64,000 bases of DNA, taken from Catajapyx aquilonaris. Lineage: Eukaryota. The position numbers and the translations under genes were made by a program. The notes beneath the pieces are model-generated. The model saw nothing but the letters and a program-made list of their open reading frames with translations. It did not search any database and was not told where the DNA came from. How positions within the stretch are numbered: the first letter of the stretch is position 1; each line of letters starts with the position of its first letter. Of the stretch, positions 7,657 to 50,090 are shown piece after piece. The DNA lies in assembly GCA_000934665.2 (NCBI GenBank), contig JYFJ02000441.1, positions 1-64,000 on the forward strand, in the 5' to 3' direction.

Positions 7657-9270
7657 TCACACTCCTGTATGAACTTTCTTGTGCCTTTTCAATTGATTTC
7701 CATGACAAAATTTTTCCTGGCACACCTCACAAATAAATGGTTTTTCTCCTGTATGAATACGCATGTGAATTGTCAAACTATATGATTGACGAAATTTCTT
7801 CTGGCACACTTCACAGGTGTAAGGCTTCTCTCCTGTATGAATTCGCATGTGGTTATTCAAACCACTTGATTTACGAAATTTCGTCTCGCACACCTCACAA
7901 GTGTATGGTTTCTCTTCTGTATGAATTCGCATGTGATTTTTCAGAAGACCTGAATAACGAAATTTCTTCTGGCATACCTCACAAATGTAAGGTTTCTCTC
8001 CTGTATGAATTCGCATGTGAGCCTGCAAAGAACTTAAATCACAAAGTTTCTTCTGGCACACCTCACAAATGTAAGGATACTCTCCCGTATGAATTCGCAT
8101 ATGAATTTTCAATTTATGTGCATGACAAAAACATTTCTGGCACACCTCACATGTGTGTAGGTTCTCTCCTGTATGAATTCTCATGTGAGGTCTCAAACCT
8201 TGTAAGTCACGAAATTTCTTCTGGCACACGTCACAAATAAATGACTTACTACTGTCTCCTTCATGAATTCGCATGTGGGATTTCAACTGACCTGAACTAC
8301 AAAAACGTTTCTGGCACATCTCACAAACGAATGGTTTCTCTCCAGTATGAATCCGCATGTGCATTTTCAAACTACCTGATTCAACAAATGATTTCTGGCA
8401 GACGTCACATACGAAAGGCTTTTCTCCTGTATGACTTCGCATGTGAATTTTCAAACTACTTGATTCACGATATTTTTTCTGGCACACCTCACATACATGA
8501 GGCTTTTCTCCTGTGTGACCTCGCATGTGAGTTTTCAAATTACTAGAAGAACGGAATTTTTTCTGGCACACCTCACATACATGAGGCTTTTCGCCTGTGT
8601 GACCCCGCATATGAATTTTCAAAATACTGGAAGAACGACAAATTTTCTGGCACACCTCACAAATGTATGGTGTCTTTTCTGTATGAATTTGCATGTGCGC
8701 CTTCAAATTACGTGAATAACGAAATTTCATCTGGCAGACCTCACAATCAAGAGGTCTCTTTCCTGTATGAATTCGCTTGCGAGCTTTGCCGCGAGCTTTC
8801 GACTCAGTTGCACCAGGAATGTGTCTTTCCATCAGGATCCCTTCCTTTTCTTCTCCGTCTTCAGCTTTCATGTCCACAACCTGAACAAGAAGAATATTTA
8901 TAAATATTTTTCTATGTGAATTGTAGCGTCCCGGCGTCCCACCTGCTATGGTCACATGGATGGTCCCCTTTGTTAGGATACCGGTACATACCCCACTGAT
9001 CTCTCCAGATTCACCTCCTAATAAAGGGTCTTCTTCGTCCACACTGGGCATGTCCACCACCATCTCCTCCTCCTCTGGTGGTTCTTCCTTGATGTCACCG
9101 GGAGTGTCTTGTATGAATTGAGTCGAGTTGAAGCAATAAGACGGGCTCTCCTCCTTCAAGGCCAACTTCCAGCCCTCCTCATCCACCGTGATGTCTTCCT
9201 CCCCTTCTTCCTTCTTTATCATCTGGACAGCTGATGGACATTTCTTTTCCAGGAAAAGGTGGTCGGCCAT
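7657..9270 (-). CDS. Cluster ZNF gene Z2: 13 fingers; first intron and normal ATG deleted; acidic exon ends 8992, finger exon starts 8880
   Basis: 537-aa continuous ORF; 111-nt stop-free intron 8881-8991; junction with 5'UTR-exon sequence near 9228. Confidence 0.8.
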
Positions 9271-9343
9271 TTTCGATGAATTTGGGGTGCATTCCCATCG
9301 CCATGATGGAAAATGGCGGGTCGATCAGCTGATCTTGAGCAGC

Positions 9344-10853
9344 ATGGACCTGGGCATTGTCGCTCTGCTGGTGGCTCGTGGGGCCCTCCGACGGGACCGG
9401 GTCTTCCGAGACCGGGCCAACGCCTTCGAGTTGCCCGACTCGGTGTTCAGGGACGCGTACCGCCTGCCGAAGCATGTGGTAATGCAGGTGTGCGACGCAC
9501 TTAGGGACCGGCTGACAGGACGAGGGCCCACGTCCATGCCTGTTGAGACCAAGGTGCTGGTGGCCCTGCATTTTTATGGCACTGGCAATGCCCAAGACGC
9601 CAATACCATGAGCCACTACCATCCGCAGTCGCAGGCTGGGGTGTCCGTGGCCATAGAGCAGGTCACCAACGCCTTGGTTAGTGGACCTCTTCTGAAGAAG
9701 ATCACGTTCGAGTCTGACAGTGACACTCTGCACAGACGAAAGGTAGGTACATACTGACCCAACCAGGTGGATGGTTCATATCTTCCAACATCTTTTCAGA
9801 GACTTTTTTTTGACAAGTGTCAGCTTCCTGACGTCATTGGTGCATTAGACTGCACGTACGTCAACATCAAGAAGCCATCAAATGTCATAAACCCTATGTC
9901 TTACCTGGACAGAACGGGTAATTTTTCCATCAACGTTGAACTGGTAAGGTGGTCCACATGGCATTGTTTCTGTGACTTTATGATTTATCACCCTAGGTGT
10001 GTGACAGAGAACTACGCATCCTGCACGTGTCAGCGAGATGGCCGGGAAGTAACCACGACTCGTACATATGGAGGAATTCGGGGATGAGGAGCCGTCTGCT
10101 TCGCCTCCCAGGGCTCGGCCATCTCCTGGGTAGGTCTTGATGTGCTCATGTCCACACTGTCCACATGCAGAAAGTTCGGAAGGCCAGGAGAGAACAGCCC
10201 ACTGGATAACATAACCCCATATCATGAACAGTGATTCTGTAGTGCAGTCATTACTGCTTGTAATGACAATATCATTTGTTGCAAATTCTAACACCAGTGT
10301 ATCACCATTTCAGGCGATAGTTGCTATCCACTGGAGCCCTTTCTAATGACCCCTCTCCCAGTTCCAACCAGTGAGATGGAGAAGGAGTACAATTATCGTC
10401 ATGCTGTGGGAAGGAATCCTGTCGAAAGAGCATTCGGGGTGCTGAAGGCACGCTTCAGGTGCCTTCACCATTCAGGAGGAGACCTGGTATACCATCCTGG
10501 GAAGGTGTGCCGTATATATGTGGCCTGTGCCATTTTACATAACGTGTGCCGAGAAGCAGACGGGCGCTTCAAGGAGGACTATGACACAGATGATGATGAT
10601 GATCCTGAGAGTTGTAAGCATTAATGCAGAAAAAATGGTACATGCAGACCACCACCCATCTATAATTATAGGTTCTGATGATGACAAGGAAGACAACCCA
10701 GATGAGGGGTGTCAGTATGATCCTGAGAACGGCACAGCGGCTGCAGCTGTGACAGCCACAATGGCCAGTGAGAAGCGTCAGCAACTGGTGGGCCTGTGCA
10801 CTAGCCACATCAGGAGGCAAGCACTTGCGAGACAGAGGCGAAGGTGTAACTGA
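9344..10853 (+). CDS. PIF/Harbinger DDE transposase (HARBI1-like nuclease), ~385 aa; exons 9344-9742, 9800-9943, 9997-10129, 10314-10613, 10672-10853
   Basis: Motifs VIGALDCT, SINVELVCD, WPGSNHD, LLGDSCYP, VERAFGVLKARF; all introns GT-AG with matching phases (0,0,1,1). Confidence 0.9.
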
Positions 10854-11128
10854 TTTTTTCCCCTGGTGTAACGCAAACTGTGGTGTTCATGTAAGAATTA
10901 TGAGTATTATTTACATTCATTAGTGAATGTATTTAACAAAAATAGTGTAACTTATACGAGTACATTTCACAAATACATGAAATACGTAGAACAAGTAGGT
11001 ACAAAATATATTGAAAAAGTTTTCTGATGAGCAGTACTGAGTTCTTTGTCAGATTTAAAACTGAAAGACGCCCAATGGTGGTACAAATGTTTAATAAATT
11101 ATGAATTATCATGAAGATATTGAATAAT

Positions 11129-11273
11129 GGGGCTGTGCAGACGGGCCGGCCTTGGCCGCAGCCCTGGCCAACTTCCAGGAAGTTGGCCTACGTTGTAAGC
11201 CATGGCCTGGCCGTGGCTTGCCAGGTGTGAACCGTTGCGGCCGCGGCTGGGCTTGGCCCGTCTGCACGGCCCC
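11129..11273. mobile_element. GC-rich Harbinger-type MITE between the 3' ends of the nuclease and Myb genes
   Basis: TIR ggggctgtgcagacgggcc / ggcccgtctgcacggcccc in AT-rich flanks. Confidence 0.7.
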
Positions 11274-11568
11274 TATAATTTATCTGAAGACAATTTCTTG
11301 AAACATACGTAAGTGGTGAAATGAACACAAATAAATGAAGCTTGGTACTTGTTGGTGGACAAACTCTTCAACACTGCAGGTATTTTCTGGCATTACTGGA
11401 TTACCGAACATGAAAATATGAAAGTACATGATGGTTTTGGTCACATTCCATCAGTCAAATTGTTGGCATTGTATAGGTTTTTTTTTGGTTTGTTTAGCAA
11501 TTAGAAATGAAATCACTGTTTCTTTCTCGTAATACAGTAAGAATCTGGAAATAAAAATGTATACATAT

Positions 11569-13295
11569 CTATGTATCTTGTTGAGTGGTCCTTAACTTGA
11601 TCATTTCCTGCAGGGCCAAGGCAATTGTCCCCAGGTGGGAGGACATCACAGCGTGGTGTCGGTTGGCTTCTCTTTGTTCTTGAAGCATCTTTACGCGGTG
11701 TAGGTTGGCTTGTCTTTGTTCTTGCAGCATCAGTGCGTGGTGTCGGTTGGCTCGTCTTTCTTCTCGAAGCATAGCGTTGTTGTGCTCAGCAGCCTGTGTG
11801 GGTAGTTAAGAATTAGGCATGAGCTCAGATCTAAATAATTCAGCAAGTCCCAGAGTACATAAATTGTGACACATGCTTGTTCCAGGTATTGTTCCAACTG
11901 GGTGTTGCGGGTACGCCTCTCCGTCCTCCTCCTCTCTTGCCTGGGCCTGGCACCTGCACCGGTAGAGGGCTGCTTGGGGGGATGTTGGTTTGTGCCTTGG
12001 GTAGACTCACCACGGGTAGACCTGTTGGACGCACCAGTCACACTGCAATAAGGTTCCATGACAAATTGGTAAGTAGCAAGACAATGTTGTCACATGGAAT
12101 GGACACTGGAAGAAACATAGCTGGTGTGAATTTTCCTTTACTTCCTGTTCATATGTACTATATCGCCCAAAAAGATGGAGACGATTTTGCATTTGACTCA
12201 AGTGCAACTTGCACTTGAATCAAATGCCAATCGTCTCTATCTTTTTGAGCGATATAGTACATCATGTTCACAGAAATGCGAGGCAGTTCATTATCTGACT
12301 TCGGAAAAATTTTCACTTACTTGGTCACATTACTGGTGTCCACTCCCAGGCTCTCGCCTTCAACATTTTCAATACCAATGAATGGCAGCACCTCCTCCTC
12401 CAATGGTGTGAGGGCTGCACAGGCTGGCCCTCCTCCAGTACCTTGCTTATGCTTGTAAACAGCATTGGCCTTTGATTTCACCTGTGTGATAATAATGGCA
12501 ATCATGAGTGAAAAGTTGAAAAGCAGTTTCATTTATGATCCGACAGGTTATAAAAAGTAGTGACAATACGAAGTGGAACCCTGATATATCATGCACTTCA
12601 ATTTCTGCGTGATTATTATTAGTACGGGTTATTAGTGATCACAGCTCATCAACATCATTGGCATGTATGAAATACTTCCTGTTCCGGGACGCTCATTGGT
12701 TTCATTGCTAGCTACAGTATGGGTAAGCTAACTTATGGGTTTTGGGAGGTGGCTTGTGTCCTTGGCAGCCATAATTAAGCCCCGCCCCCTACCGGTCGAC
12801 CAATCAGGATTCGATATCAAAGGAGGTGGGCATTATAAAATCTCAACAATGAGTTTGTTTACACTAACGCAGTTGGTAACTTAGCAGAGGAGAAATATTT
12901 CCCAACTAATCCTTTTAAATTCCATACCAAAGAACTCAGCAGGGGGCGGGGCTAATATGACTGCCAAGGACACAAGCCACCTCCCAAAACCCATATTAGC
13001 TTACCCCTACTGTAGCTGTAATAAAAATAATATATTTCATTGCATGCTATACCCAGCTTTTGTAATAGGACCACTTTTCCCTCGTCTCTGTGCCCGTTCT
13101 TTCATTGCCTCCTACTGCATTCACAACAGCGGCACATGCCTCCCAAGCGCCCCTGAGGGCCTCAGAATTGGGCAGGGTGGGACATAAGACACCACCCGCC
13201 AAATCCTCGTGGTCCTTCAGGTATCCAACGAGAGCAGACAGCTCTTGGCCAATCCAATTTGGGCGCCTCTGCTTTCTACCACTAGGCCGACTCAT
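11569..13295 (-). CDS. Harbinger Myb/SANT-like DNA-binding protein, ~264 aa; exons 13295-13053, 12481-12321, 12042-11877, 11793-11569
   Basis: RRPNW...EL..L...AW..C...VN...RT...REKW trihelix pattern, GTGGGP motif, C-terminal coiled-coil repeats; last intron needs a GC donor (caa|gcatgt). Confidence 0.8.
12153..12262. repeat. Near-perfect 110-bp palindrome in Myb gene intron 2
   Basis: atgtactatatcgc...caagtgcaa c ttgcacttg...gcgatatagtacat. Confidence 0.8.
12715..13012. mobile_element. Tc1/mariner-type MITE in Myb gene intron 1
   Basis: ~75-bp TIRs with CAGT/ACTG ends, TA TSD; inverted second copy at 62306-62604. Confidence 0.85.
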
Positions 13296-13812
13296 ATGGG
13301 CTGCAGAATTCGTACTTTACCACCAGTGGGCATAAATTATAGCGCGCCCTTTTCCTGAATTGGCGGTTAGAAGCCTGTTGCTGTCACGGGAAGATCTGGG
13401 GGGCGACTCCGGCCGATTATTATCATATGAGAGGCCACCACGATTGAAGATATAAGGCTCCTTTACCGGCGGCCATACTTGAGCCACCACGATTCCGCCC
13501 CGTTCCGCAAACCGATAGAGGCGCCACCAGAAATGCGTGCGCAATTGACCACTTTTAACGTTCAGAGACCTCTGGCGGTTTCAACTCGCCACGGGCAGAA
13601 AGCACGACCACAGTGCTCACTGCTCAGCTCACTTAGCTCATAATATCACCGGACAATGTGACAAACCTTGCCTGGCAGGGCCACATAGACAGACAGTACA
13701 AGTGCGGTCACTCCAAGGCTACACAGATGCCACCAACTCAAAACGATAGTAAAATCTGATGTGACTTTTCCCATCATTAAAGGTTATCCAATATATTCAG
13801 AAGATTACCTAC

Positions 13813-14070
13813 CCCACTCTTATTATCTCCATATTCACCTCCTAAAGGGTCTTCTTCGTCCACCCTGGGCATGTCCACCACCATCTCCTCCTCCTCTGGT
13901 GGTTCTTCCTTGATCTCACGTAGAGTGTCTCGTATGAATTGAGTCGAGTCTCCATTGAAGCAAGACGGGCTCTCCTCCTTCAAGGCCAACTTCCAGGTCT
14001 CCTCATCCACTGTTATGTCTTCCTCTTCCTCCACTTCCTCCTTATTCTTTATCATCTGGACCAGAGACAT
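13813..14070 (-). CDS. Acidic cluster exon (copy B) with its own promoter (~14234-14332) but no adjacent finger exon
   Basis: Intact MSLVQMIK...DPLGG frame; intron homology to Z1 stops near 13591, where Harbinger sequence begins. Confidence 0.75.
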
Positions 14071-16903: not shown

Positions 16904-19814
16904 TCACTCTCCAGTGACATGGATTCGCATGTGAGTTTTCAAACAGCTTAAGAAACGAAATTTTTTCTGGCACACCTCACATGTAAATGGTTTCTCTCCT
17001 GTATGAATTCGCATGTGAGTATTCAAAGTACCTAATTCACGGAATTTCTTTTGACACACTTCACAATTAAATGGTTTTTCTCCTGTATGAATTTGCATGT
17101 GGGCTTTCAGATGACCTGAATGACGAAAGTTTTTCTGGCACACCTCACAAATATATGGTTTCTCTCCTGTATGAATTCGCATATGAGTTTTCAGACAACT
17201 TGAGAAACGAAATTTTTTCTGGCATACCTCGCAAATAAATGGTTTTTCTCCTGTATGAATTAGCATGTGAGACTTCAAAGTACATGAATCACGAAAGTTT
17301 TTCTGGCACATCTCACAAACAAATGGTTTCTCACCAGTATGAATTCGCATGTGAGTTTTCAAACTATTTGATTCACAGAATTTTTTCTGGCACACCTCAC
17401 AAATGTGTGGGGTCTCTCCTGTATGAATTCGCATGTGAGTTTTCAAATGATGTGAACAACGAAATTTCATATGGCACACCTCACAAACGAATGTTCTCTC
17501 ATCTGTATGAATTAGCATGTGAGTTTTCAAAGTACGCAAACGACAAAAACTTTTCTGGCATACCTTACAAATAAAGGTTCTCTCTCCTGTATGAGTCTGC
17601 ATGTGAGATTTTAATTGAGCCGAATCACCAAATTTTTTCTGGCATTCCTCACAAGTAAATTCTTTCTCTCCGGTATGAATTCGCATGTGAACTTTCAAAT
17701 GACCTGAGTGACGAAAATTTTTCTGGCAAACTTCACAAATGAACGGTTTCTCTCCCGTATGAATTCGCATGTGAGTTTTCAAATGACTTGAATGACCAAA
17801 TCTCTTCTGGCACACCTCACAAATATATCGTCTTTCTCCCGTGTGAATTTGCCTGGGAGTCCCTTTCTTCTCTACTTCATCTTCAGTTCTCATTTGCCCA
17901 ACCTGAAACATGAATAAGAGTACATAAATTTCTATTTTTGCAATATGAATAGTGTGAAGCATTCCTCCTGCTATGGTCATATGGATAGTAAGTCCTGTTT
18001 ATTTTATAGTCACAACATGTTGTCTCATGTATCCATCGATTGTACTACCAAAAATTTCATTGTAACTACAAAGAATGTTACGATGACAGAAAAAATTACC
18101 ACTGTTGGATCGACGTCAGATTATTGGCACATTTGCATGCAAATATTTTGAAAACCTGCCCAAATTTACTGTTACTTTAATGGATCCAATTCCACGAGGC
18201 AGCCCCCACGAGAAAAGTGAATGCAAGGTCTGTTAGCCTACGGGTAAATTACAGAGTGATTTAATTGCAATTCCATAAAAGTATTGTCTAAGACTATTGC
18301 TTTCTGCAGAATTAAAATAATAGCAACTGACAGTTCGAAATATATGCTGGGAATTGAATGCTGGAGACACACCTTCCTATCTTCCAGATAAAAATGTCAC
18401 TCTTCAGGACTGAAATTACGGGATTCCTTGGCGCCGTCAAACCAAGTGCATATGATTATGACTGCTCTGTGAGACACTGTATATGATTTCTATTCTATGT
18501 TTTATTGTTATAGAGGCATAATTGCACCAATTACCTTTTTAAAAAAACTTAAATGAGAACAAAAACATTCCTTGCCGTAAAAGGAAGAGAAGACCTCCGT
18601 GGCAGAAATGAAAGTATTGAAACAAGGCAGGCACATGTAAGACCTTCACCAATTGATTTAAGCTGTACCATAGGTCTTATTCGAGCAATTCTGTAGTATT
18701 GTGCTGAATGGCTCATAAAAAATACTACTCCAAACTACTCAACCTACTCATGGCAGTAGGCAGGGTTTTATTTTGGGAAAAATGAACCCATCCTCACAGA
18801 ATTTAAATTTTTGCAGCTGAAAATGCAGAATCCCATCCAAAAAAAGACCCTCAAAAAATTCACCAATTTTCGTCTACATGTGAAAAAAATTTAAATTCTC
18901 TGAGAATGGGTTGATTTTCCCCCAAATAAAAGCCTGCCTACTGCTATGAGTCCCTCTCTAATACAAATCAGGTACTAAAACAAGACAAGTCTACGAAAGG
19001 GGTTACGTTCCTGAAAATGGCCATAAGTCAGAATTGTACATAACTCGGATCCATGAGGAACAGCGCATAATATGTAGCGTAAAAATGATGCACCTACAAA
19101 CCGCTTACGTCGTGTGCATTTGTTCGCATGCGCGGAAGAACATGGTTTCCCAATTATTTATTAATTATACAGTATTGATGTTGAACTTCGTGTCTGCCAA
19201 CGTACGCAGAAATGATTGAAAGTGGAAGGATAATTATGAATTATCCTACTGGGGCGCCTTGGAGGCCGTAAGTAAGTATGGACGGCCGGAAGTCGGGTCG
19301 TTCGTAAACTGAGGACTTCCTGGCCTATGTTTAAAGGCACTAATCATAGAGAAATTTTATAAGCTCAATATTGCAGTTCCTTAATTTCAGAAAATGCTCG
19401 TATATGAAGTGGCTCATGAAACTGTTTTCAGAAAGGATGCTTTATGAGCAATAAATTGGGAATTGCTTGGAGCAAGACCTACGGTATACAGCTTAAATCA
19501 ATTGGTGACGGTACTTTCTTTTCTTTTTACTGAAATGAAAGGTTTTTGTTCTCATCACATTTTCAGCAGAGCACACTCATCACCTCTCCAGAAACACCTC
19601 CTAACGGGTCATCTTCGTCTACCCTAGGCATGTCCACCGCCATCTCCTCCTCCTCTGCTGGTTCTTCCTTCTTGATATCAACGAGAGTCTCTTGAATAAA
19701 TGTCGAGTCGTCATCATCAGACGGTGTCTCCTCCTTCACGTCGACCCTCCAGGTCTGCTCCACTGCCATTTCTTCCTCTTCCTCCACTGCTTCCTTCTTT
19801 ATCCACAATGACAT
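16904..19814 (-). CDS. Cluster ZNF gene Z5: acidic exon 19814-19584 + 11-finger exon 17902-16904
   Basis: Open frames; phase-0 acceptor; donor gag|gtgatg is less canonical. Confidence 0.8.
18746..18951. mobile_element. MITE-like fold-back element in Z5 intron
   Basis: ~65-bp imperfect TIRs actcatggcagtaggcagg... / ...cctgcctactgctatgagt. Confidence 0.7.
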
Positions 19815-20407
19815 GGCCCTGCCAACACAAGACTTCAGGTGTCATGTAATCATCTCTAGAACAAACTTATCCTCACCCTTCTGCGTCCCGGATCACATAT
19901 GAAGAGCAGAAGAGGAAACAAAATCTATTGAGGTCACGGAAACGGAATGAGTTCTAACTGTTGTCGGCCATTTTGATTGACCTTCACTTGGGGTGCATTC
20001 CCATCGCCACCAAGGGATCAACGTCCTTTTTAAGCGCTATTGGTTATCAAGAGTAGCCGCTACTGGTGATACTGCTATTCGCTAATAGCATCATTCTCAA
20101 ACATGATGCATTGTTTTACATGTACTGTACTTACAGTATGAACTACATGGTTTTTTGGGAGGCTTCTGGCAAGGAAACCATATTGCATAACATGTGGTGC
20201 ACAATCCGGTTATGACTACGAGCAACATCGGTAGAGTGAGTTAAAAAAAAAGCCAAGGTTAACATATTTTATTAACAATTATTGCACATCTTACATACAC
20301 ATTTCTAATAATGTACACTCTTTATGCAATTACGGTAATTACAACAAGACATGCTCAGACTATCTTACCAATAACAATTTTGCTATTCCCGCCCCCCAGA
20401 AAAGATG

Positions 20408-21578
20408 TTACATCTGAACCGGTTTTTCACGTGTGTGAATTCGCATGTGTATCTTCACACTTTTTAAGCGACTAAACTTTTTCTGGCAATATTTGCAACT
20501 AAATGGTTTTAGTCCATTGTGAATTCGCATGTGAGTTTTCAAATGGCTTGTTAAACCAAATTTTTCCTGGCACACCTCACAAGTATATACTTTCTCTTCT
20601 TTATGAGTTTGCATGTGACTTTTCAAACCATTTATCCCGTGAAATTTTCTCTGGCAAACCTTACAAGTTTGAATTTCACGAGCTAGAGTGTGAGCTTTCA
20701 AAAAATATGAACTAATAAATTTTTTATGGCATACCTTACAAGTAAAGGGGTTTTCTCCTTTATGAATTCGTAAGTGAATTTTGAAGTACCATGAATCACA
20801 AAAACCTTTCTGGCACACCTCACAAATATATGGTTTTTCTCCTGTATGAATTAGCATGTGAGCTTTCAAACTGCGAATACGAACAAATTTTTTCTGGCAC
20901 ACCTCACATACGTATGATTTTTCCCCTGTAAGAATTTGCATTTGAGCTTTCAACATGGTTAGATCAAGATATTTTGTCATTGAGTTCCTTCCTGTCTGAA
21001 TGCCTTTCTCTTCCACTCCAAATTCAGTGCTCTCTTGCACGCCCTGAAATGTGAATAAGAGTACATCAATTTATATTTTTGAAATGTGGACGGTGTGATT
21101 ATATGGGCACATGAAGTTGTCGCATACATTCACAGATTGTACAATTACACATTTCAGTGTAACTTTAAGGAATGTCGGAATGATGGGAATAATGACCTTT
21201 GTTGGGCTGCGGTCAGCAAGGGAAAATCTTTTGCATATTAATATGTGGATATTTTAAACAGTTATCATTTATTGTTACTTTAATGCCACACTTCCCAAAC
21301 TAGGGGCTCCGCAGAAGCATTTTCATCAGAACACATACCCCACTCATCCCTCCAGAACCACCTTCTAAAGGGTCATCTTCGACCACCCTGAGCATGTCCA
21401 CGACCATCTCCTCCTCCTCCTCTGCCGTGTCCTGCTTTATCTGATGCAGCGCGTCTTGACTACATGTAGAGTCAGCTTCAGACTGACTCTCCTCCTTCAA
21501 GGGCATCCTCCAGGTCTCCTCATCCACTGTGATGTCTTCCTCCACTTCCTCCTCCTTTATCTTCTGCGCCAGTGACAT
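20408..21578 (-). CDS. Cluster ZNF gene Z6: acidic exon 21578-21339 + 6-finger exon 21043-20408 (third finger lacks second His)
   Basis: Phase-0 GT/AG sites and open frames. Confidence 0.8.
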
Positions 21579-22032
21579 GGTCCTGCCAACACACAAATAC
21601 TGCAGGTGTCATGTAATCATGTCTATAGCAGTGTGACTCACCCTTCTGCGTCCACACCAGTCCGAGTGAGGGGAAAGAGAGCCCAAGAAATTCAGAGACG
21701 AGACGGGTCGAAATGAGCTCTAAATGTGGTCGGCCATTTTTTTTATTGACCTTCATTTGGGGTGCATTCCCATCGCCACCAGGGATCTGTTTAAGATCTA
21801 TTTCCTATCGAGCTTCTTTGCCATGTGGTGGTCATCTTTTTGTGGTCTAATTTCTTCATGCCCTACTTATTTCCACTGAAAGAAGCCAACAGCCAAGCAC
21901 TGCACACATAATTTTATACATTTTAAATCACTCTTCGTCCATAATACATATACAACAAATTACAATAAAGCGGATGAATATCTACATGTATATTCAAGTT
22001 CATTATTAAGTCAAGTTATTAAAGTTATCCGT

Positions 22033-22941
22033 TCAGGACCTGACAGTCTCTTCTTCCACACTAAATTTCATCTCATATTGTGTTTTGTTTAAGCTTTTGC
22101 AGTTCGAACACATTTCGTCATGATATACAACCAGGTCACAGTTCTTGTGCCGTATGTGCCCAAGGCAGTCCACGAATGCTGACGCAGGACATCCAGTGTG
22201 GATAAGATCTGCACGCAACATACTACCGTCACATACTTTGGCTCTGTCCAATTCTAATATTAAGGCTTCCAAGTGCTCCACGGATTGAAGCCCATCACGG
22301 GGTATTCCTAACTTTTCTATGTCTAGTAACATACCCACAACGCTACATGTAATTATTCCATTTTCATCAACAGATACGCTCTTATGGAAAACAGGATCAA
22401 CATGATGTCTCCCATCTGTGTCACTTACCAACTGAGAATAGCACACCATTATAGGACCTATCATTGGAACTATGCGGTTCCAGTAGGGCGGAAGTGCAAC
22501 AGCTTTTGAGTTTTTGTAGAGGTACATTAATGTCTTAAAGTCTTTCAATGCACATGCTGACGTCTCATCTGCCTTTGCCTCTTGTTTCACACCAGGATTG
22601 GCTTGCGGAGCGCAAACAGGGGTGGGATACACAGTGTCTTGGCCCAAGTTGTCACCACATTTTAGTCCACCGTCTGATGTGCGATGTGACGATGACACTG
22701 CTCCTAAAGGGTCATCCTCGTCCACCCTGGGGATGTCCACCACCATCTCCTCCTCCTCTGCTGCCTCCTCCTGCTCCTCTGATGGGTCCTGCTTGATCGC
22801 ACGAGGAGTGTCTTGTGTGAGAGTCGAGTCCCCGTCGAAGCAATAAGACGGGCTCTCCTCCTTCACGGCCACCATCCAGGTCTCCTCATCCACTGTGATA
22901 TCTTCCTCCACTTCCTCCTTTATCCTCTCCACCAGTGACAT
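22033..22941 (-). CDS. 302-aa protein: cluster acidic module fused in frame to a non-C2H2 Cys/His domain (P-element/THAP transposase-like by eye)
   Basis: Same promoter and ATG context as the ZNF genes; no donor after DPLG; LPPYW...VCDG...D.LG.IRHKNC-x9-CSNC. Confidence 0.75.
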   Translation of the reverse strand: MSLVERIKEEVEEDITVDEETWMVAVKEESPSYCFDGDSTLTQDTPRAIKQDPSEEQEEAAEEEEMVVDIPRVDEDDPLGAVSSSHRTSDGGLKCGDNLGQDTVYPTPVCAPQANPGVKQEAKADETSACALKDFKTLMYLYKNSKAVALPPYWNRIVPMIGPIMVCYSQLVSDTDGRHHVDPVFHKSVSVDENGIITCSVVGMLLDIEKLGIPRDGLQSVEHLEALILELDRAKVCDGSMLRADLIHTGCPASAFVDCLGHIRHKNCDLVVYHDEMCSNCKSLNKTQYEMKFSVEEETVRS

Positions 22942-23228
22942 GGTCCTGCCAACACAAATACTGCAGGTCATGTAATCATGTCTATAGCAGTGTAACTCAC
23001 CCTTCTCGTCACCCTTCCGCTGCGTCCAAACCAGTCCGAGTTCAGGGAAAAAGAGAGCCCAACAAGTCAAAAGGAGGAGACGAATCGAAAGTTCATCAAC
23101 AACGGAAAATGTCGTCGGCCATCTTTTTTGATTGACCTTCAATTGTGGTGCATTCCCATCGCCACCATATGATCAAACAGTTATTTTTCATCAAGAGTCG
23201 CCGCTACTGGTGCTAAACTGCTATATGC

Positions 23229-23303
<75 letters not shown>
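23229..23303. repeat. (ATT)n microsatellite
   Basis: Pure trinucleotide run; similar runs near 29770-29870, 43580-43652 and 43940-44015. Confidence 0.95.
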
Positions 23304-23304
<1 letters not shown>

Positions 23305-23434
23305 GTCTTCTTACACTCTTTGTGTGAATACAATTACAGCTTAAGCAGAAGCTTCTGATGTAGGTCTATGTAACGCACAAGATTATCTTTCCGATGAGCT
23401 GCCGTTTTGCATTTATTTAATTCCGGAAAAGAAA

Positions 23435-26026
23435 TTACAACTGAACTTGTTTTTCGCGTGTGTGAATTCTCATGTGTGACTTCACAGTGCTTGAGTGGCT
23501 AAATTTTTTCTGGCACACCTCACATTGAAATGGTTTTTCACCTGTATGAATCCGCATGTGCGTCTTCATATTACCTAACACACTAAACGTCTTCTGACAA
23601 TATTCGCAACTAAATGGTTTCTCTCCAGTGTGCTTTCGCATGTGTGATTGCACTCTACTAGAAGTAGTAAACTTTTTCTGGCAATAGCTGCAACTAAATG
23701 GTTTTTCACCGGTGTGAACTAGCATGTGTGTCTTCATACTACTTAAATGACTAAACTTCTTCTGACAATGTTTGCAACTGAACGGTTTCTCACCAGTGTG
23801 ACTTTTAAGGTGGTTTTGCAACTGACTTGTCACAATAAATTTTTTCTGGCACACCTCACACTGATATGGTTTCTCTCCCGTATGAATTCGCAAATGAACT
23901 TTCAAAATATTGTGGGTGGTAAACCCTTTCTGGCACACCTCACAAATATGTGGTCTCTCTCCTGTATGATTTCGCATATGAATTTTCAATGCATATGATT
24001 CATGAAATCTTTTCTGGCACACATCACATGTAAATGGTTTCTCTGCAGTATGAATTTTCATGTGGCTTTTCAAATGACTTGGCACAACAAAACCTTTCCG
24101 GCAGATATTGCAGGTATAGGGTTTCTCTCCTGTATGAATTCGCATGTGAATTTTCAAGTCATAGGCAGCATTAAACTTTTTCTGGCACACATCACAAATA
24201 AATGGTTCCTCTCCTGTATGAATACGCATGTGAATTTTCAACCCGTAAGAGTCATGAAATTTTTTCTTGCACACCTCACATGACAAAGGTTTCTCTGCAG
24301 TGTGATTTCTCATGTGGCTTTGCAAATTACTTGACGCAGAAAATCTTTTCCCGCAGATACTGCAGGAGTAGGGTTTCTCTCCAGTATGGTTACGCATGTG
24401 AAGTTTCAAACCATATTTCGTGCCAAGTGATTTCTGACACATTTGGCATTCAAATCGCTCGATCCTATCACAACGTCTAGTGTTCTTGTTCATCTGGACT
24501 CCTTTCTCCACACAGACTTCATCAGGTGTCTCTTGTGATGCCTGAAAAGTTAATTGTAGCATATCAATTTACATTATCCAGTGTGCATGGTATAACGATT
24601 TCCGCATGTCTTTGGTAATTTATTAGTAAAGAATCCTTTATCGAAATACCTCTTGTACCATTATTTGTATTAGTAGCACACAGGTACCATACTGCGTGAC
24701 TGCCCGAGATCTTCATATGAGAAGAAATTACATCTGTTTTAGAAATGAGCAGGTCATTCCTCCCACCCATCCACCCACACAATGAATGCTCAAAACATTT
24801 GAAAGATTTTTAACATTTTGATAACCTGGGAGACAGTTTTTTTTTGTTACCTTTAATATTTCCAACTATAGTGAACTCATTGTCAAAAACTTTGCAAAAT
24901 ACCTAGGCGCCTGACAGTCCAACATACATTACAGGCCTACCATACCCCTTGCATAGATGGCGCATCCTCCCTCTCTTCACACTCCTGCCACTCTCAAGAT
25001 CATGCAAGGGGCAGTGGTACATGCACCTGGCTGATTACTCACCGGGACCAAGCCGGGACAAATGAACAGAAATACAGGCGAAGTCAACTATTCTGTATAT
25101 GCGTATAATGATGATGCCAATCGACAGCTCATGTCATTAAAGTGGATGTATTAGTTAAACAAACAAATTTTGGAACATTTGGTGATTCATGATTACCCTG
25201 ATTGTAAACCAAATTGGATATCAGCATTCTCTGCGTCCTACAACAAGAATTAAAATTATTATATTAATTGAAATGACAGTAAAGCAAAGTGCCTAAAGCG
25301 AGGGATGCCTGTAGGACAATAAGCAGCAGCTGACTGAATGTTAAAGAGTGCGGGAGGGGTCATTCTTATGTGCAAGAATAGACATAGCTGCCCATCTAGC
25401 CTAAGACACAATGCAACACATAAATCATGGTAGACAATTTCTCCAGCTTCCTTAGAGGAAGATTTCATTCTTTGATTGCCAGTTCCACAGCCCATAACCT
25501 GCCCATGCGGTGTCCTTCTTCTTCCATCACAGTCCAGAATAAAATCACCTGAAGGGCACCTTGCCACTTGAAGGAAATTACATGTAATACCGTACACCCG
25601 ATCCATCACATCACTGCAGCGTAACCTTTTACTTTAATAAAAGCATGCAAAGAATATCAATAAAGGCAGATGTGGACCTGCATAAGTTTGAGTAGCCTAC
25701 TAGGAAGAATCTTTTGGTGAAAAAGTCCTGTCACATTATTTCATATCTTCAGCAGATGACCTACGTACCCCACAAATCCTGATGGAACCAACTGCTAAAG
25801 GGTCGTCTTCATCTTCAACCACACCAGGCATGGCCACCACCATCTCCTCCTCCTCCTCTGGCTCCTCTTTGACCTTACAGAGTGTGTCTTCTTGACTAAA
25901 TGTTGAATCCCCATCAAAGCAAGACGTCGACTCCAACGTCCAGGTCTCCTCCTCCACTACGACGTTTCCCTCTTCCTCTTCTCCTTCCTCCGCCACTTCT
26001 TTCTTGACCCTCAGATCCAACGACAT
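23435..26026 (-). CDS. Cluster ZNF gene Z7 (most divergent): acidic exon 26026-25769 + 12-finger exon 24541-23435
   Basis: Phase-0 GT/AG sites; promoter module ~26304-26410. Confidence 0.85.
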
Positions 26027-31049: not shown

Positions 31050-31160
31050 TACCCCACTCACATTTCCAGATCCACTTCTTAAAGGGTCTTATTTGTCCAC
31101 CCTGGGGATGTCCATCGCAATCTCCTCCTCCTCCTCCTCCTCTAGTCCTCTTCCTCCTAC
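31050..31160 (-). pseudogene. Truncated remnant of the acidic exon
   Basis: aaagggtctt...tccaccctggggatgtccatcgcaatctcctcc matches the EEE..IDIPRVD..DPL half only. Confidence 0.65.
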
Positions 31161-45529: not shown

Positions 45530-47575
45530 TTAATGTCTGCAGTTTAAACCTGATTTTGCATGATGAATACTGAAGTTCATGCTGCATCTGTGAATCCATA
45601 CATTGCATGAGCAGATTGCCTTTTTTCTATGAGTTATTTTTGAAAGCCTTGCACAGCCAAGGGTAGTTGAGCATTTTTGTTGCTTCTTGTAAAAGCATAT
45701 TTCTGCGAGCATTACTAGGCTTGCAAGAGCATTTCCGCCAAGGAGGATCCAAAACGCACCCTCCAAACACTCTAAGGAGAATGCCACATACTCTTCTTCA
45801 AAAACCCCATCCTGTGTCCGTGCCTTAGATGCACTCTGATGATAAATGTGATCGACGTAACTTTGTTGCTGGATGGAAAGTCCAATGCTGTTGTAGATTT
45901 GCATCCAGTAGTTGAACTCTTCAGAATAAATTGTGTTTTTCTTAAGCGCCACTGAATTATACACTATCACTAGGTAGTCAGAAGGTATTAGCACATTGTC
46001 CATTCCATACACATCAATTTTCTTAGCAAGTTCCTTCAGCTGCAGGTCACCACCCATGTAGCCTCGATTGTGCATCAAAATGTCATCACCGGTGCATTCA
46101 AGAGGGGTATCCACAACTTCCATATTTTTTATCCATTTTTTCCCAAAGTTACCCACTTCTGAGTCGATATTTCTCTGCAATGCCTCGTATAATATTCTGT
46201 TAATTATAATTGTATATTTTAACTCAATTAATTCGGCTATAGTTTCAGGCACTTTCTCTTTTGGTGGGAATGTGAGAATATCAAAAAGCTTGGTTTGATA
46301 ACCTGTGCCAATTACAATGCAGAAAAAACACCATATCAGACAAAACAATCGAGGAGCTGATGACTGTACATCGAAATAAATAGGATCTTGTTCGACAACA
46401 ACTCGTGCCAAATATTGCAGTGTGGACAAATACGATCGAAATGAAGATGGTATTCCTATCAGTTTGAATTGCTGCTTCGAAAGGGCATACAGAAAAACAC
46501 TTGACAAGGTAAGAGAAATACCAAACAAGCACCAAGTGAGTGGCTCATACGGTAATATTATGATAAGTGAAGTGTCTAGTACTCGCGGCTTTCGCACAAG
46601 GAAAGTGATTCGTTGAAGTTTGTCCAACGTAACAAGGTCAAATACAGTATTTAATATGCTAATTGTTGGAACGTATGGTACAAATGATAGTATTCCTCTC
46701 TGGAAATCGTTCACTACTTCAAGCGCTTTTTGCATGTCTGTCATAATTGCTGTGAAGTCGACACCAGTGACATACCATTTCATATTTAGAGCTTCACCCA
46801 CGAAACACATGTAGAGAAGGAAATCGTGTGGTCCACAATCTGTGTAGTTAAAGTCTTCCCAAAATAGTCCTCGAAGAGTAATACCATGCAAATTATATGC
46901 AGTGTTGTTGTACAGTATGGCATGTAGATTTACTGTGTTGGCGTCATTAATAAACGTTTCGTGATTTATTATAGGTTCACTTCCATTGCAGTAGAGACAG
47001 ACTGAATTTATACGGATGTTGTTGGGTTCAGCAGGGGTGACTGACACTTTGAATTTTATCTTCTTTGCCGGGTTTTCAGTAAGAAATGCAGGATTCAACT
47101 CATCCCGAATCCAAAACAAGAATGCGTCCTTGACCTTTCTGGCAAACACCATACTTTCTTCGCTATTCATGAGCTCGTCTATGATGCTCTCGTAATTTTC
47201 AGCACATGTTGTAACAAGATGGATTGCACACCTGACCATTTCCATGCGATTATCTGCTTTGAAAAATGCATAATCTTCACCTGAGTTAGTACAATCCCAA
47301 GTACTTAGCGACTCATATTTAGTGATAATCAATGGTCTTCCTGACGATGACACGTTGGATAATAAATCTTGTACGCTCTTTGGAAATGACTTGTTCACAT
47401 CATGGCTCACCACTAAAGGGCACTGCATCTCCAACTTGTGCTGATCTTTCAACATGTTCCACATCATCGCAGGCACCATAGTATCCCCTGCATTTTCACT
47501 AGGATTTTGAAACGCGATCTCACTGTTCACTTCCAACAACAGCAATGGAAAGACGGCTTTCCAAATGACATACAT
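45530..47575 (-). CDS. Intronless divergent ionotropic receptor (variant iGluR), 681 aa
   Basis: Signal peptide; TFLVRKP...LPY...W before M1; VVEQD pore loop; W.FFCIVI.TGYQ..L...LTFP; FSLECLEGAFWIL final TM. Confidence 0.85.
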   Translation of the reverse strand: MYVIWKAVFPLLLLEVNSEIAFQNPSENAGDTMVPAMMWNMLKDQHKLEMQCPLVVSHDVNKSFPKSVQDLLSNVSSSGRPLIITKYESLSTWDCTNSGEDYAFFKADNRMEMVRCAIHLVTTCAENYESIIDELMNSEESMVFARKVKDAFLFWIRDELNPAFLTENPAKKIKFKVSVTPAEPNNIRINSVCLYCNGSEPIINHETFINDANTVNLHAILYNNTAYNLHGITLRGLFWEDFNYTDCGPHDFLLYMCFVGEALNMKWYVTGVDFTAIMTDMQKALEVVNDFQRGILSFVPYVPTISILNTVFDLVTLDKLQRITFLVRKPRVLDTSLIIILPYEPLTWCLFGISLTLSSVFLYALSKQQFKLIGIPSSFRSYLSTLQYLARVVVEQDPIYFDVQSSAPRLFCLIWCFFCIVIGTGYQTKLFDILTFPPKEKVPETIAELIELKYTIIINRILYEALQRNIDSEVGNFGKKWIKNMEVVDTPLECTGDDILMHNRGYMGGDLQLKELAKKIDVYGMDNVLIPSDYLVIVYNSVALKKNTIYSEEFNYWMQIYNSIGLSIQQQSYVDHIYHQSASKARTQDGVFEEEYVAFSLECLEGAFWILLGGNALASLVMLAEICFYKKQQKCSTTLGCARLSKITHRKKAICSCNVWIHRCSMNFSIHHAKSGLNCRH

Positions 47576-48161
47576 TGCTTTCCAGTCTCCTGCACAAATC
47601 CAACTAACGAAGTGTCGTAGAGAGCTCAGTCAATGCAAGTATTTCAACATAAAGAGTTTCTACACCTTCAGAAAGGTTAATCAATATAATTGACAGAACT
47701 AATCAAGTATGGAGAGCTTCATTTCTGTATACCTTTGAAGGTCGCTGGTTTTTAGCATAGCACGTAAATGAATCAATAAAATGTTCAAATACTGTATAGG
47801 TCAAAAGGCAGTATAATAATTGGGAATTGTTTTGAATAATTTCTAGTGGTATCTGCGTTACTCTGTGGCCGCTTGTACTGTTGGGTAATTGTGGGTTGAT
47901 GATATATGTGTATCGACATGTTTATTTCAATCAATGTGAATCATAGGCCACTGTACAGTACCTTTGCTGCCAAGGAAACTGATTCGACACATGCAGTTTA
48001 CGTAACAAGGTCACTGCAGCCTCGCGAAATGCAAGTTAAAGCACTGTTTCAAAATTAGGCATATCAAATTGTGAAATTTTGACCCATCTAAACATGAACC
48101 CTGAACCTCACTCAATATTATGCCTATTAAAACATCACTATTGTTATGTAACAAACCAGGC

Positions 48162-50090
48162 TTAATTCACTTGAACAATTTTTTTACAGCAATAATTTCT
48201 GCTGGTGCAAATTTCACAAGAAAGGACAAGTACAGATATCACGATTCCTCCAATGAGGATCCAAAACGCGCCTTGCAAGCAATCGAAAGAAAACACGACG
48301 CCATCGTCATCCGAGATGTGGTCTCGTCTTCGTGCTTTTGCTGCCCTAAGCTGGTAGAGATGCTCGTCAAAACGTGTTTTCTTCATGGAGATGCCAATGC
48401 TGTTGTAAATCTGGACCCAAAAATCGAAGCTCTCGGCATAAGGCTTGTCTTTCAGATAAGCAACACCTTTGTATACATTTGCGATGATGTCAGATGAAAT
48501 GAAGGTGATATCCTTGTCATATATGTCCAGTTCTCTAGTTACAGTTTGCAGATACGATTTGCTGTCCATGCACACTTTATCTTGCATTAAAATGTCACCA
48601 TTGCAGCCTTCAGGTATGACTTGAAACTTGTCAAACAATTTCTTGTAACCGTCATGACGAGCGTCTCCATCAGCACAGTTAATCAGCGCCTCATAAAGAC
48701 CCTCATCAAGCAAAATTGAAAATTTTGAATCCATCAATTCTTGGACAGTCGTTGGCACATACTCTCTCGGTGGGAATATCAGCAATTCAAAAAGCATGCT
48801 CTGATATCCTGTGCAAATTACAATCGAGAAAAAACCCCACATGACAACAAATAATCGGATGGACAGCAAATTTGTGTCGAAATCAACCGGATCTTGTTCT
48901 ACCAACACTCGTGCTAAGTATTGAAAAGCTGAACAAACTGATCTAAAGAGAGGCTTTATCCCTAGCAGCTTGTAAGCTCGCTTTGACATATCACGCAGAA
49001 AGAAACTGGACAAAACTAGAGAAAACACAATGAGGCACCATGTGGTTACATCATACGGTAAAATAACAGCCAACGAATGATTTTGCGGTCTCGGATTGCG
49101 TGCAAGAAAAGTGTATATGTGTGGACTGTCAAGTATAGCCATACGGAATATTGCATAAGTGACATCTACTACTGCGAGAGCTGGTACGAATGACAACTTT
49201 CCAGAACGAAAGTCGTTCAGTAACTGAAGAGCTTTGGTCATATTAGAGACAAGTTCGCTTATAATCACTTGCTCAGTATACCATTCAAAATTAAGGGCCT
49301 CGCTCAAAAAGCAAATGTCCAGCAAACGTGCATATGGCCCGCAATCTGTATGATTATATTCTTCCCAGAATATACCGCGAAGAGTAATCCCATGCAGATC
49401 GCTTCCTGTGTCGTTATACAGCCTGAATTTAAAATTGATTGGATCAACTGATACTGACTCGATTGTTGGTTCACCTCTATTGCAATAAATGCATGCGGAA
49501 TGTGTCACAATTCGGTTGTTGTTGTTGTTGTAAGTAACTTGCAGTTTTAGTCTGATGTCCGAAGCTGGCTTTTCAGTCATACGTCCTGGATCTGTCGAAT
49601 CTCGAACCCAGATCACAAAAGCATCTTTGGTCTTTTTGGCAACAAACACGCCCGCTTCTTCGTCCAGCAGCTCTTCCATGACAGCTTCGTAGTTGTCCTC
49701 ACAGGTTGTTACAAAGTGAATGGCACATTTAAGCTTGCTGGGATCAACTAGAGATGCATCGCCTTCAGAAGAAACGGTGCAGTCCCAGTTGCTTCGTGAC
49801 TCAGATGTTGAGATGACCAGGGGTCTTCCTGCAGTGGACAGATTGGCCATGAGAGACAGTACACTTTTAGGAAATTGGCCCTCCAGATCGTGACTGATCA
49901 CTAGTGGACACTGCATGTCCAATGTGGAGTCATCTTGCAACATATTCCACATGAGATGCGGCAACAAGTCATTGCCTACATGTGGACCTGACATTTTAAA
50001 GGATACGGTGCCGCATGCAGCTCCAAAAAATAAAATCGCTATGAAAATGACCATCATGATTATCAAAATGTCTTGTATGTCCATCAACAT
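48162..50090 (-). CDS. Intronless divergent ionotropic receptor, tandem paralog, 642 aa
   Basis: Collinear with 45530-47575 (MQCPLV.SHD, C.YCN, LHGITLRG.FWE, LARV.VEQDP). Confidence 0.85.
   Translation of the reverse strand: MLMDIQDILIIMMVIFIAILFFGAACGTVSFKMSGPHVGNDLLPHLMWNMLQDDSTLDMQCPLVISHDLEGQFPKSVLSLMANLSTAGRPLVISTSESRSNWDCTVSSEGDASLVDPSKLKCAIHFVTTCEDNYEAVMEELLDEEAGVFVAKKTKDAFVIWVRDSTDPGRMTEKPASDIRLKLQVTYNNNNNRIVTHSACIYCNRGEPTIESVSVDPINFKFRLYNDTGSDLHGITLRGIFWEEYNHTDCGPYARLLDICFLSEALNFEWYTEQVIISELVSNMTKALQLLNDFRSGKLSFVPALAVVDVTYAIFRMAILDSPHIYTFLARNPRPQNHSLAVILPYDVTTWCLIVFSLVLSSFFLRDMSKRAYKLLGIKPLFRSVCSAFQYLARVLVEQDPVDFDTNLLSIRLFVVMWGFFSIVICTGYQSMLFELLIFPPREYVPTTVQELMDSKFSILLDEGLYEALINCADGDARHDGYKKLFDKFQVIPEGCNGDILMQDKVCMDSKSYLQTVTRELDIYDKDITFISSDIIANVYKGVAYLKDKPYAESFDFWVQIYNSIGISMKKTRFDEHLYQLRAAKARRRDHISDDDGVVFSFDCLQGAFWILIGGIVISVLVLSCEICTSRNYCCKKIVQVN

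Follow-up and report, generated by a model that had tools for sequence, protein, structure and literature searches.

A zinc-finger cluster gene whose acidic exon is joined in frame to a THAP-adjacent domain of P-like transposases in an apparent arthropod

Introduction

Among described genes, the one reported here comes closest to host-transposase fusions, above all to the KRAB-transposase genes found in tetrapods (10.1101/2020.05.07.082677). As set out in the available part of that work, these genes (e.g. KRABINER) take an effector exon from a zinc-finger gene that belongs to a cluster, combine it with a transposase-derived domain, use a host promoter and have their fingers replaced. Host-transposase fusions have been documented mainly in tetrapods, usually as KRAB spliced to the DNA-binding domain of a transposase. 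The locus described here shares this arrangement in outline and differs from it in several respects. According to the available text, the tetrapod genes arise mainly by splicing to an acceptor that the transposon supplies, and what they capture is mostly a DNA-binding domain; here the breakpoint lies in the DNA inside an exon, no splice is involved, and the captured part is neither a THAP nor an HTH domain. The effector is a lineage-specific acidic exon with no Pfam match instead of KRAB, and the named relatives of the captured domain are all from insects.

A second comparison is with the 66 kDa and KP proteins of Drosophila. The P transposase has the domain order THAP, dimerisation region, HTH, and its truncated 66 kDa and KP forms repress transposition (PMC7776569, from the portion of that article at hand). 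These proteins retain only N-terminal regions of a P-type transposase, without its catalytic part, and hinder transposition; the fusion protein resembles them in its make-up. In contrast to the fusion ORF, which has no THAP, the same portion describes the 66 kDa and KP proteins as retaining THAP and binding element DNA. In Drosophila, dimerisation is through a leucine zipper, whereas the profile of the captured domain matched no transposase among PDB sequences, and the fusion gene is driven by a host promoter and not by that of an element. Among the P-superfamily (THAP9-like) transposases more generally, the fusion has a single domain in common with relatives that bear THAP, the Tnp_P_element HTH and the start of a TNP-like RNase H. 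The common domain has no Pfam model, and the catalytic and DNA-binding parts are all missing from the fusion.

The parent cluster, in turn, resembles the FiNZ-ZNF genes of cyprinid fish and the KRAB-ZNF genes, which are described in the accessible sections of one report as having a short Glu-rich N-terminal exon, a single exon of tandem C2H2 fingers and many tandem copies (PMC10547256). This likeness is one of layout alone; the fusion copy has no fingers, and a word search with its acidic part found nothing.

Results

The window, meaning the whole 64-kb stretch of DNA that was analysed, contains a cluster of C2H2 zinc-finger genes arranged as tandem copies on the minus strand. A tblastn search with the first 82 residues of the fusion ORF located 11 acidic exons in the window, counting that of the fusion copy, together with one broken fragment at 31080-31142 that carries a stop. 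Ionotropic-receptor-like genes adjoin the cluster. The fusion ORF begins with an ATG at 22941 on the minus strand, ends with a TGA stop at 22033-22035 and encodes 302 aa. Read along this strand, the gene consists of a cluster-type promoter, a UTR exon, a 55-nt intron, the acidic coding exon and a foreign coding stretch (Table 1). The promoter includes the conserved block GGTGGCGATGGGAATGCACC...AAAGATGGCCGAC, and blastn matches to paralogous units reach 23167-23232 on this side. The donor of the UTR exon (AAGG|GTGAGT) is also present in the paralogs, with which the acidic exon of the fusion copy shares 48-69% protein identity. No zinc-finger exon was found between 22700 and the promoter of the next unit near 21800. 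The locus belongs to the zinc-finger cluster by its promoter, UTR exon and acidic exon, yet is without a finger exon.

Table 1. Coordinates of the features of the fusion locus, in window positions
Feature	Positions	Strand	Evidence
Cluster-type promoter	23119..23223	-	Aligns with five paralogous units; long invariant runs
5' UTR exon	23001..23118	-	X1 contig record 6: 23118..23000 joined to 22944
55-nt intron, GT..AG on the minus strand	22946..23000	-	Joint 22944->23000 in contig
Acidic coding exon, ORF residues 1-80	22701..22945	-	Truncated just ahead of the paralogs' splice donor; tblastn, alignment
Breakpoint within exon, TTAGGAG|CAGTGTC, in-frame fusion	22700..22701	-	Paralog similarity stops; bridged by contig record 5
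57-residue linker	22522..22700	-	Without relatives of its own
THAP-adjacent domain, ~150 aa	22075..22521	-	phmmer relatives, kept invariant columns, AlphaFold2, X1 contigs
C-terminal helical tail and TGA stop	22033..22074	-	Helix 155-177 in model
AT-rich 3' flank	21801..22032	-	Unique in window; extends to promoter of next unit

Pfam returned no family for the 302-aa ORF at E<=10. At this threshold there was no match to the KRAB profile, and the likeness of the predicted acidic sequence to KRAB is limited to its Glu-rich make-up. Likewise, Pfam detected no THAP, HTH, nuclease or C2H2 finger in the predicted protein. The Tnp_P_element HTH and the split RNase H core with its GTP-binding insertion had no match in either the ORF or the 64-kb window. 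When 32 queries (the window's own protein, P0002, and 31 relatives, some of them THAP-bearing) were searched against the window by tblastn, only 22036-22710 was matched. By these domain searches, the predicted product lacks THAP, HTH and nuclease and so does not qualify as a transposase, and it is no longer a zinc-finger protein.

The position of the join was defined by comparison with the paralogous units. A blastn search of 22033-23400 against the window gave ten paralogous matches, of which eight begin at exactly 22701 and the others at 22702 and 22705; in none of the ten does similarity extend below 22701. On the minus strand, all copies share the sequence ...GACCCTTTAGGAG up to the junction. 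The paralogs then continue for at least 14 nt before a GT donor (GCGGATCAGGAGGG^GTGCGT in three of them), and the fusion copy continues with CAGTGTCATCG..., which is unrelated to the paralogs. The fusion is a DNA-level breakpoint inside the acidic exon. The splice donor was thus lost when the exon broke and was linked to other DNA, and not through mutation of the donor itself. The foreign stretch extends over ~900 bp, as far as the start of the next unit's proximal promoter at ~21800, and the alignment showed that this next unit is without the distal promoter block common to the other units. This layout would fit a deletion from the exon into the upstream region of the next gene, with ~900 bp left behind or filled in. 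Neither blastn nor tblastn found a second copy of 22033-22700 in the window, and between 21800 and 22700 there were no terminal inverted repeats or duplications beyond the repeats of the paralogous units.

Past the junction, the reading frame is open for 221 codons, compared with 6-17 stops in each of the five alternative frames over these 665 nt, and it was open in none of 20,000 shuffles. Because such a frame survives in no shuffle and the other frames are rich in stops, the foreign stretch is coding sequence from elsewhere. The prior chance that a coding fragment joins on the right strand and in the right frame is about 1 in 6, which is unremarkable by itself. The first-pass annotation had described a standard cluster promoter, UTR exon and acidic module running without a splice donor into ~200 aa of unrelated, stop-free sequence. 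The blastn comparison and the alignment with paralogs bear out the first part of this description and the 221 open codons the second, and the motifs that it listed (LPPYW, HKSV, LEALILELD, VCDG and AFVDCLGHIRHKNC-x9-CSNC) are all present in the 302-aa ORF.

Evidence for a transcript came from one public run (X1), in which 73% of sampled words were present and whose kind is not on record. Across 19500-25500, the contigs from this run covered exons, and intergenic and intronic bins were at depth 0. In one contig, 23118..23000 was joined to 22944..22729 with 55 nt skipped. The skipped segment is bounded by GT..AG on the minus strand, which reads CT..AC on the plus strand (cut +1), and the shorter side of this single contig measures 119 nt. 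Because cover was limited to exons and the joint is spliced, we infer that the run is of RNA origin. The contigs tile 23118-22082 with the 5' intron removed. One of them (record 5, 22587-22731, 0 mismatches) crosses the junction unspliced with 114 + 31 nt on its two sides, and no joint leaving the acidic exon was found among the joints listed over 22082-23118. Another (record 4) covers 22082-22608 with a single difference at 22540, a synonymous GAC>GAT. Transcript reads across ~22700 had been proposed as a check on the fusion; a contig does run unspliced through 22700|22701 into the domain. Host and transposase parts are joined in one RNA, given that the run is taken to be RNA. Toward the 3' end, contig cover breaks off at 22082, with 47 nt still to go before the stop codon, and there was no cover over 21912-22081. 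Poly(A) hexamers between 22033 and 21871, and in the 3' flank as a whole, are variants only, and the first canonical AATAAA lies at 21747. A donor-like CAG|GT occurs 5 nt ahead of the stop codon of the fusion ORF.

The source of the foreign part was examined by homology searching. A phmmer search (HMMER) with the last 178 aa against 1.84 billion representatives recovered 31 relatives at E<=1e-3, four of them at E<=1e-10, and the best had an E of 1.5e-21 and 36% identity. Seven relatives carry names and all are from insects: Bacillus rossius, two loci of Ischnura elegans, Dryococelus australis, Trachymyrmex cornetzi, Cephus cinctus and Leptopilina boulardi. Ten further relative clusters that were looked up are without names. 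THAP scored above the Pfam cut-off in six of the 31 relatives, N-terminal to the match. C-terminal to the match, the P-element HTH scored above its cut-off of 23 bits in P0019 (28.1 bits). A relaxed re-scan of eight relatives placed the Tnp_P_element HTH after the domain in five, one above the cut-off and four below it (P0015, P0032, P0034 and P0046, at 15.1-19.4 bits and in the same relative position). P0032 additionally showed the start of a TNP-like RNase H, also below the cut-off. In the alignment, the order in the relatives is THAP, a variable linker, the domain, a long charged stretch and the RYSEEW...MRSP..Y.FLR block of the HTH. The 57-residue linker of the fusion protein corresponds in position to the variable, poorly conserved linker that follows THAP, and most of the tblastn matches begin close to 22521, where the linker gives way to the domain. 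None of the 31 relatives had a Pfam model over the captured domain.

Structure look-up in the Atlas with residues 195-350 of P0032 retrieved an arthropod THAP cluster (TM 0.80), an 854-aa protein cluster composed mostly of echinoderms (TM 0.76) and further arthropod THAP or P-HTH clusters. In the 854-aa cluster, the N-terminal part of the TNP-like RNase H is found in 98% of proteins and the GTP-binding insertion (GBD) in 83%. These structure neighbours are leads, as their alignments are not inspectable. By sequence comparison, the captured domain appears to be transposase-derived, being homologous to the region between THAP and the P-element HTH/RNase H in its relatives. A likeness to the region between THAP and the catalytic core of P-like transposases had been put forward in the first-pass annotation, which suggested a search with the C-terminal residues; the relatives found with the 178-aa query, with THAP before the domain and the HTH or RNase H start after it, substantiate that likeness. 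Word-based protein searches with residues 125-302 and 1-95 scored nothing, and a word-based search with the family profile returned three proteins only. Glypican clusters, the best hits of an Atlas feature search (0.81, recognition 1364), were treated as chance.

The four closest relatives (P0003-P0006, from stick insects and a damselfly) are short THAP-plus-domain proteins of 210-429 aa. They stop 8-18 residues past the CxxC-type motif, and the fusion ORF stops after 21. Two of them are RefSeq loci with several isoforms, one of which is named THAP domain-containing protein 5-like. Because these four end just past the CxxC, the direct donor may have been a short THAP-plus-domain gene and not a full transposase.

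The domain is composed of an alpha/beta part followed by a conserved C-x-G ... D-x2-G-x2-RH-x2-C-x9-C-x2-C part, whose conserved positions in the 302-aa ORF are C237, G239, D258, R264, H265, C268, C278 and C281. In the numbering of the 178-aa segment, all four invariant columns of the 31-sequence alignment (C113, D134, R140 and C144) are kept in the fusion protein. Five of the family's six near-invariant columns (K63, G115, H141, C154 and C157), all five lying inside the window protein, are kept as well. P0027, a 50-residue tail match in a low-complexity protein, was left out of alignments A1 and A4. The H-x2-C-x9-C-x2-C spacing, together with the invariant upstream Cys, suggests a putative metal site. 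The domain of the fusion copy has a net charge of -5 and a pI of 5.8 and is the most acidic of the family, in which most members lie between 0 and +8 and the range is -3 to +10.

An AlphaFold2 model built from the family alignment had a pLDDT of 90.5 and a pTM of 0.84. The predicted fold opens with a helix, continues with a four-stranded sheet and further helices, has short strands at the Cys/His cluster and closes with a long C-terminal helix. Comparison of the whole domain with solved structures gave no convincing match by Foldseek (best E 0.11), and an exhaustive VIA search gave a best Z of 5.8 (5n9j_A, 90 aligned, rmsd 3.6). RWD/UEV/kinetochore-type alpha/beta domains followed at VIA Z 4-5.3; all of these scores are below the noise range stated for the tool, and no fold was assigned. 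The C-terminal 74 residues alone (model pLDDT 83.1) gave a best VIA Z of 2.9 and a best Foldseek E of 2.9. Searches of PDB sequences yielded chance rows only with the ORF (E 0.44 and 5.6), and with the family profile three chance rows at E 0.42-7.5, none of them a transposase.

Selection on the acidic exon was estimated from paralogs in the cluster. Between the fusion copy and its three nearest paralogs, dN/dS was 0.58, 0.84 and 0.83, compared with 0-0.10 among the finger-bearing paralogs u30334, u38838, u44492 and u14070. Three-point arithmetic assigns nearly all of the amino-acid change to the fusion branch, where the ratio comes out close to 1, the neutral value. These values point to relaxed constraint in the fusion copy, as estimated from this exon. 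The annotation had also taken the case as evidence that the acidic exon is a portable module; the contrast between this copy and the finger-bearing paralogs does not support a module that is portable and still works. Synonymous divergence from the nearest paralog is only ~0.13, so that after a recent capture the ORF could have stayed open even without selection.

Other measures of divergence run in the opposite direction. Compared with u38838, the exon differs by 9.7% (21/217 aligned positions) and the adjoining promoter, UTR and intron by 18.9% (48/254). Indels relative to u38838 are multiples of three in four of four cases in the acidic exon and in two of 11 in the adjoining non-coding 330 nt. 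The hypergeometric p for this contrast is ~0.011 by hand calculation, although three of the four exonic indels either fall within triplet-like GAG repeats or could have arisen on the paralog's side, and only a 21-nt insertion is clearly specific to the fusion copy. No ortholog or close relative was found, the word searches being empty and the best HMMER match reaching 36% identity. An intact 302-codon ORF, retention of the family-invariant residues, lower exon divergence and in-frame indels speak for selection and the dN/dS values against it, which makes the evidence mixed. Taken together, the gene is probably young and lineage-specific, and whether it has been kept by selection or has merely not yet decayed is about evenly balanced.

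Discussion

We consider the locus to be best explained as a chimeric, transcribed gene, and it is somewhat probable that its product acts chiefly as an acidic-tagged decoy or adaptor. A DNA rearrangement broke a zinc-finger gene of the cluster within the acidic exon, a short way ahead of the splice donor, and what remained of the exon was fused in frame with ~900 bp of foreign DNA encoding a linker and a domain of ~150 residues. The resulting gene retains the promoter, UTR exon and 5' intron of the cluster, and its transcript continues unspliced across the junction. Because it has no recognisable DNA-binding part, the protein could be expected to act through protein contacts only. By analogy with the Drosophila P transposase, as far as its domain order is given in the source cited above, the captured domain appears to sit in the slot of the dimerisation region, between THAP and HTH. 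It would be followed by a long helix, which in full-length relatives corresponds to a long charged, helix-like stretch. Based on the dimerisation slot and the long C-terminal helix, the protein would most likely pair with others in which this domain is present, be they P-like transposases or proteins of the short THAP-plus-domain type. In that role the fusion would be a decoy or adaptor with an acidic tag, and its effect would be like that of the truncated P-element proteins that repress transposition, though without their binding to DNA. Acidic stretches are also typical of activators. The Glu-rich heads of KRAB and FiNZ genes have been linked to repression, to the extent that this is covered in the accessible sections of PMC10547256.

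An assembly chimera, in which the junction is absent from the animal, is very improbable. Tandem clusters misassemble easily and the window holds one N at 33428, but in a separate public run one contig spans the junction without mismatch, and the contigs on either side of it complete the cover of 22082-23118. The nature of the donor is less clear-cut. It is possible, if on balance doubtful, that the donor was a short THAP-plus-domain host gene and not a transposon, in which case the event would be ordinary exon shuffling between two host genes. The short lengths and early stops of P0003-P0006, so like that of the fusion ORF, and the RefSeq status and multiple isoforms of two of them agree with such a donor, as does the fact that the captured piece brings its own stop and an AT-rich tail resembling a 3' UTR. 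Against this, other relatives have the domain in one protein with the P-element HTH and the start of the RNase H, structure neighbours include full-length TNP-like proteins, and the relatives in ants are multi-copy (one 90% cluster consists of four sequences on separate loci). The short gene models may, moreover, be first exons of intron-bearing elements, and an ultimate origin in the P superfamily is true either way. We regard as rather unlikely a transcription factor of the KRABINER type, in which the captured domain would bind DNA, e.g. the ends of the parent element via the Cys/His cluster, and bring the acidic effector there. The metal-site-like motif with its invariant upstream Cys and the mildly basic charge of the domain in many relatives (net 0 to +10) are in its favour, and tetrapod host-transposase fusions mostly capture DNA-binding domains (10.1101/2020.05.07.082677, available part). 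However, THAP and HTH, the known binders of this transposase type, are both missing from the ORF, the domain of the fusion copy is acidic, and neither the whole domain (Z 5.8, E 0.11) nor its C-terminal part (Z 2.9, E 2.9) has a fold match to a DNA-binding domain.

The most serious contender, which we would place somewhat short of probable, is that the gene is a young, unselected by-product of repair or deletion, in which a piece of a P-like or THAP gene ended up downstream of a cluster promoter that had stayed intact. The gene would then be transcribed only since that promoter still fires, and its ORF would be open only since little time has passed. The dN/dS of the acidic exon (0.58-0.84, and ~1 on the fusion branch) and the failure of HMMER and word searches to find orthologs or close relatives are what such an origin predicts. 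So are the missing canonical poly(A) signal before 21747 and the loss of the finger exon and of part of the next unit's distal promoter, as after a deletion with filler DNA; chance alone would give the right strand and frame in about 1 case in 6. It is opposed by the 302 open codons, with no shuffle in 20,000 open over the foreign part, by the retention of all family-invariant residues and by the synonymous nature of the sole variant seen. The in-frame exon indels, set against 2/11 in flanking non-coding DNA, and the divergence of 9.7% in the exon compared with 18.9% in non-coding sequence also weigh on this side. In sum, the fusion itself is confirmed and the identification of the domain is supported, and the choice between a working decoy or adaptor and a young neutral chimera stands at roughly even.

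A more specific form of the decoy reading can be imagined in which the cluster has made a protein-level weapon. A stolen THAP-adjacent assembly domain with an acidic effector would co-assemble with an incoming P-like transposase, or with short THAP-plus-domain products, and poison or redirect the complex without binding DNA. This version is quite unlikely and is offered as speculation. If true, it would extend the arms race between zinc-finger genes and transposons from DNA recognition to transposase mimicry, and it would provide the first function for a widespread, undescribed domain of P-superfamily transposases.

In the literature searched, titles and the opening parts of abstracts contained no account of this domain or of a comparable invertebrate fusion of an effector with a transposase. 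The locus displays the logic of the tetrapod genes in an apparent arthropod, a placement suggested by the insect relatives of the domain and by the ionotropic-receptor-like genes nearby, and it differs from them in the effector exon, the exon-internal join and a captured part that is not a known DNA binder. If the gene is under selection, it provides a natural experiment on the role of the domain and on the ability of the acidic exon to function when no fingers follow it. It also brings to light a conserved domain, ~150 residues long and shared by P-like transposases and THAP proteins, with a confident predicted fold, no Pfam model and no solved relative.

Shared promoter and other units of the cluster

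Our analysis has also shown that the promoter block of the fusion gene, in which the acidic coding exon is joined to a transposase-like domain, is present in each unit of the zinc-finger cluster. This block, GGTGGCGATGGGAATGCACC ... AAAGATGGCCGAC, is strongly conserved among the cluster units of the window. The RNA-like contig of X1, a public sequencing run whose kind is not on record, starts at position 23118, within the GATGGCCGAC part of the block. Immediately upstream of the fusion gene promoter, at 23226-23300, is a (TTA)n microsatellite with some 25 repeats.

One paralog carries the acidic module, the Glu-rich N-terminal coding exon common to the units, and about 12 C2H2 fingers in one frame; where the other units have an intron, this one reads on in the same frame without a stop. 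A degenerate acidic-exon fragment is the remnant of a further cluster unit. Over finger exons (20706-20906 and 24123-24323), the depth of X1 contigs climbs to 150-400, and numerous odd joints link finger exons of different genes. We read these joints as cross-matching between the finger repeats of paralogs and not as true splicing.

Features of the cluster and of its surroundings
Feature	Position	Strand	Remark
Promoter block, fusion gene	23107-23170		
Promoter block, cluster unit (example)	21722-21781		
Paralog with acidic module and fingers	7657-9324	-	555 codons, unbroken
Degenerate acidic-exon fragment	31080-31142	-	in-frame stop
Two opposite-strand ORFs	9140-9775	both	205 and 198 codons
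Tandem ORF	45530-47629	-	699 codons
Tandem ORF	48162-50132	-	656 codons
Two overlapping open frames	60026-60626	-	HHHH..LSRHH units

Other open reading frames

The two opposite-strand ORFs adjoin a paralog's acidic exon, inside a G+C-richer block (8000-14000). The plus-strand ORF gave no Pfam match; its sequence may be similar to the N-terminal part of nucleases of the Harbinger type. The two tandem ORFs, both apparently intronless, matched the Pfam ligand-gated ion channel family at 27.7 bits (45530-47629) and 29.7 bits (48162-50132), slightly under its cut-off of 30.8 bits, and they look like divergent ionotropic-receptor-type genes. Finally, the overlapping open frames cover a His-rich and Pro-Ser-rich repeat, which is low-complexity DNA, either coding or repeat.
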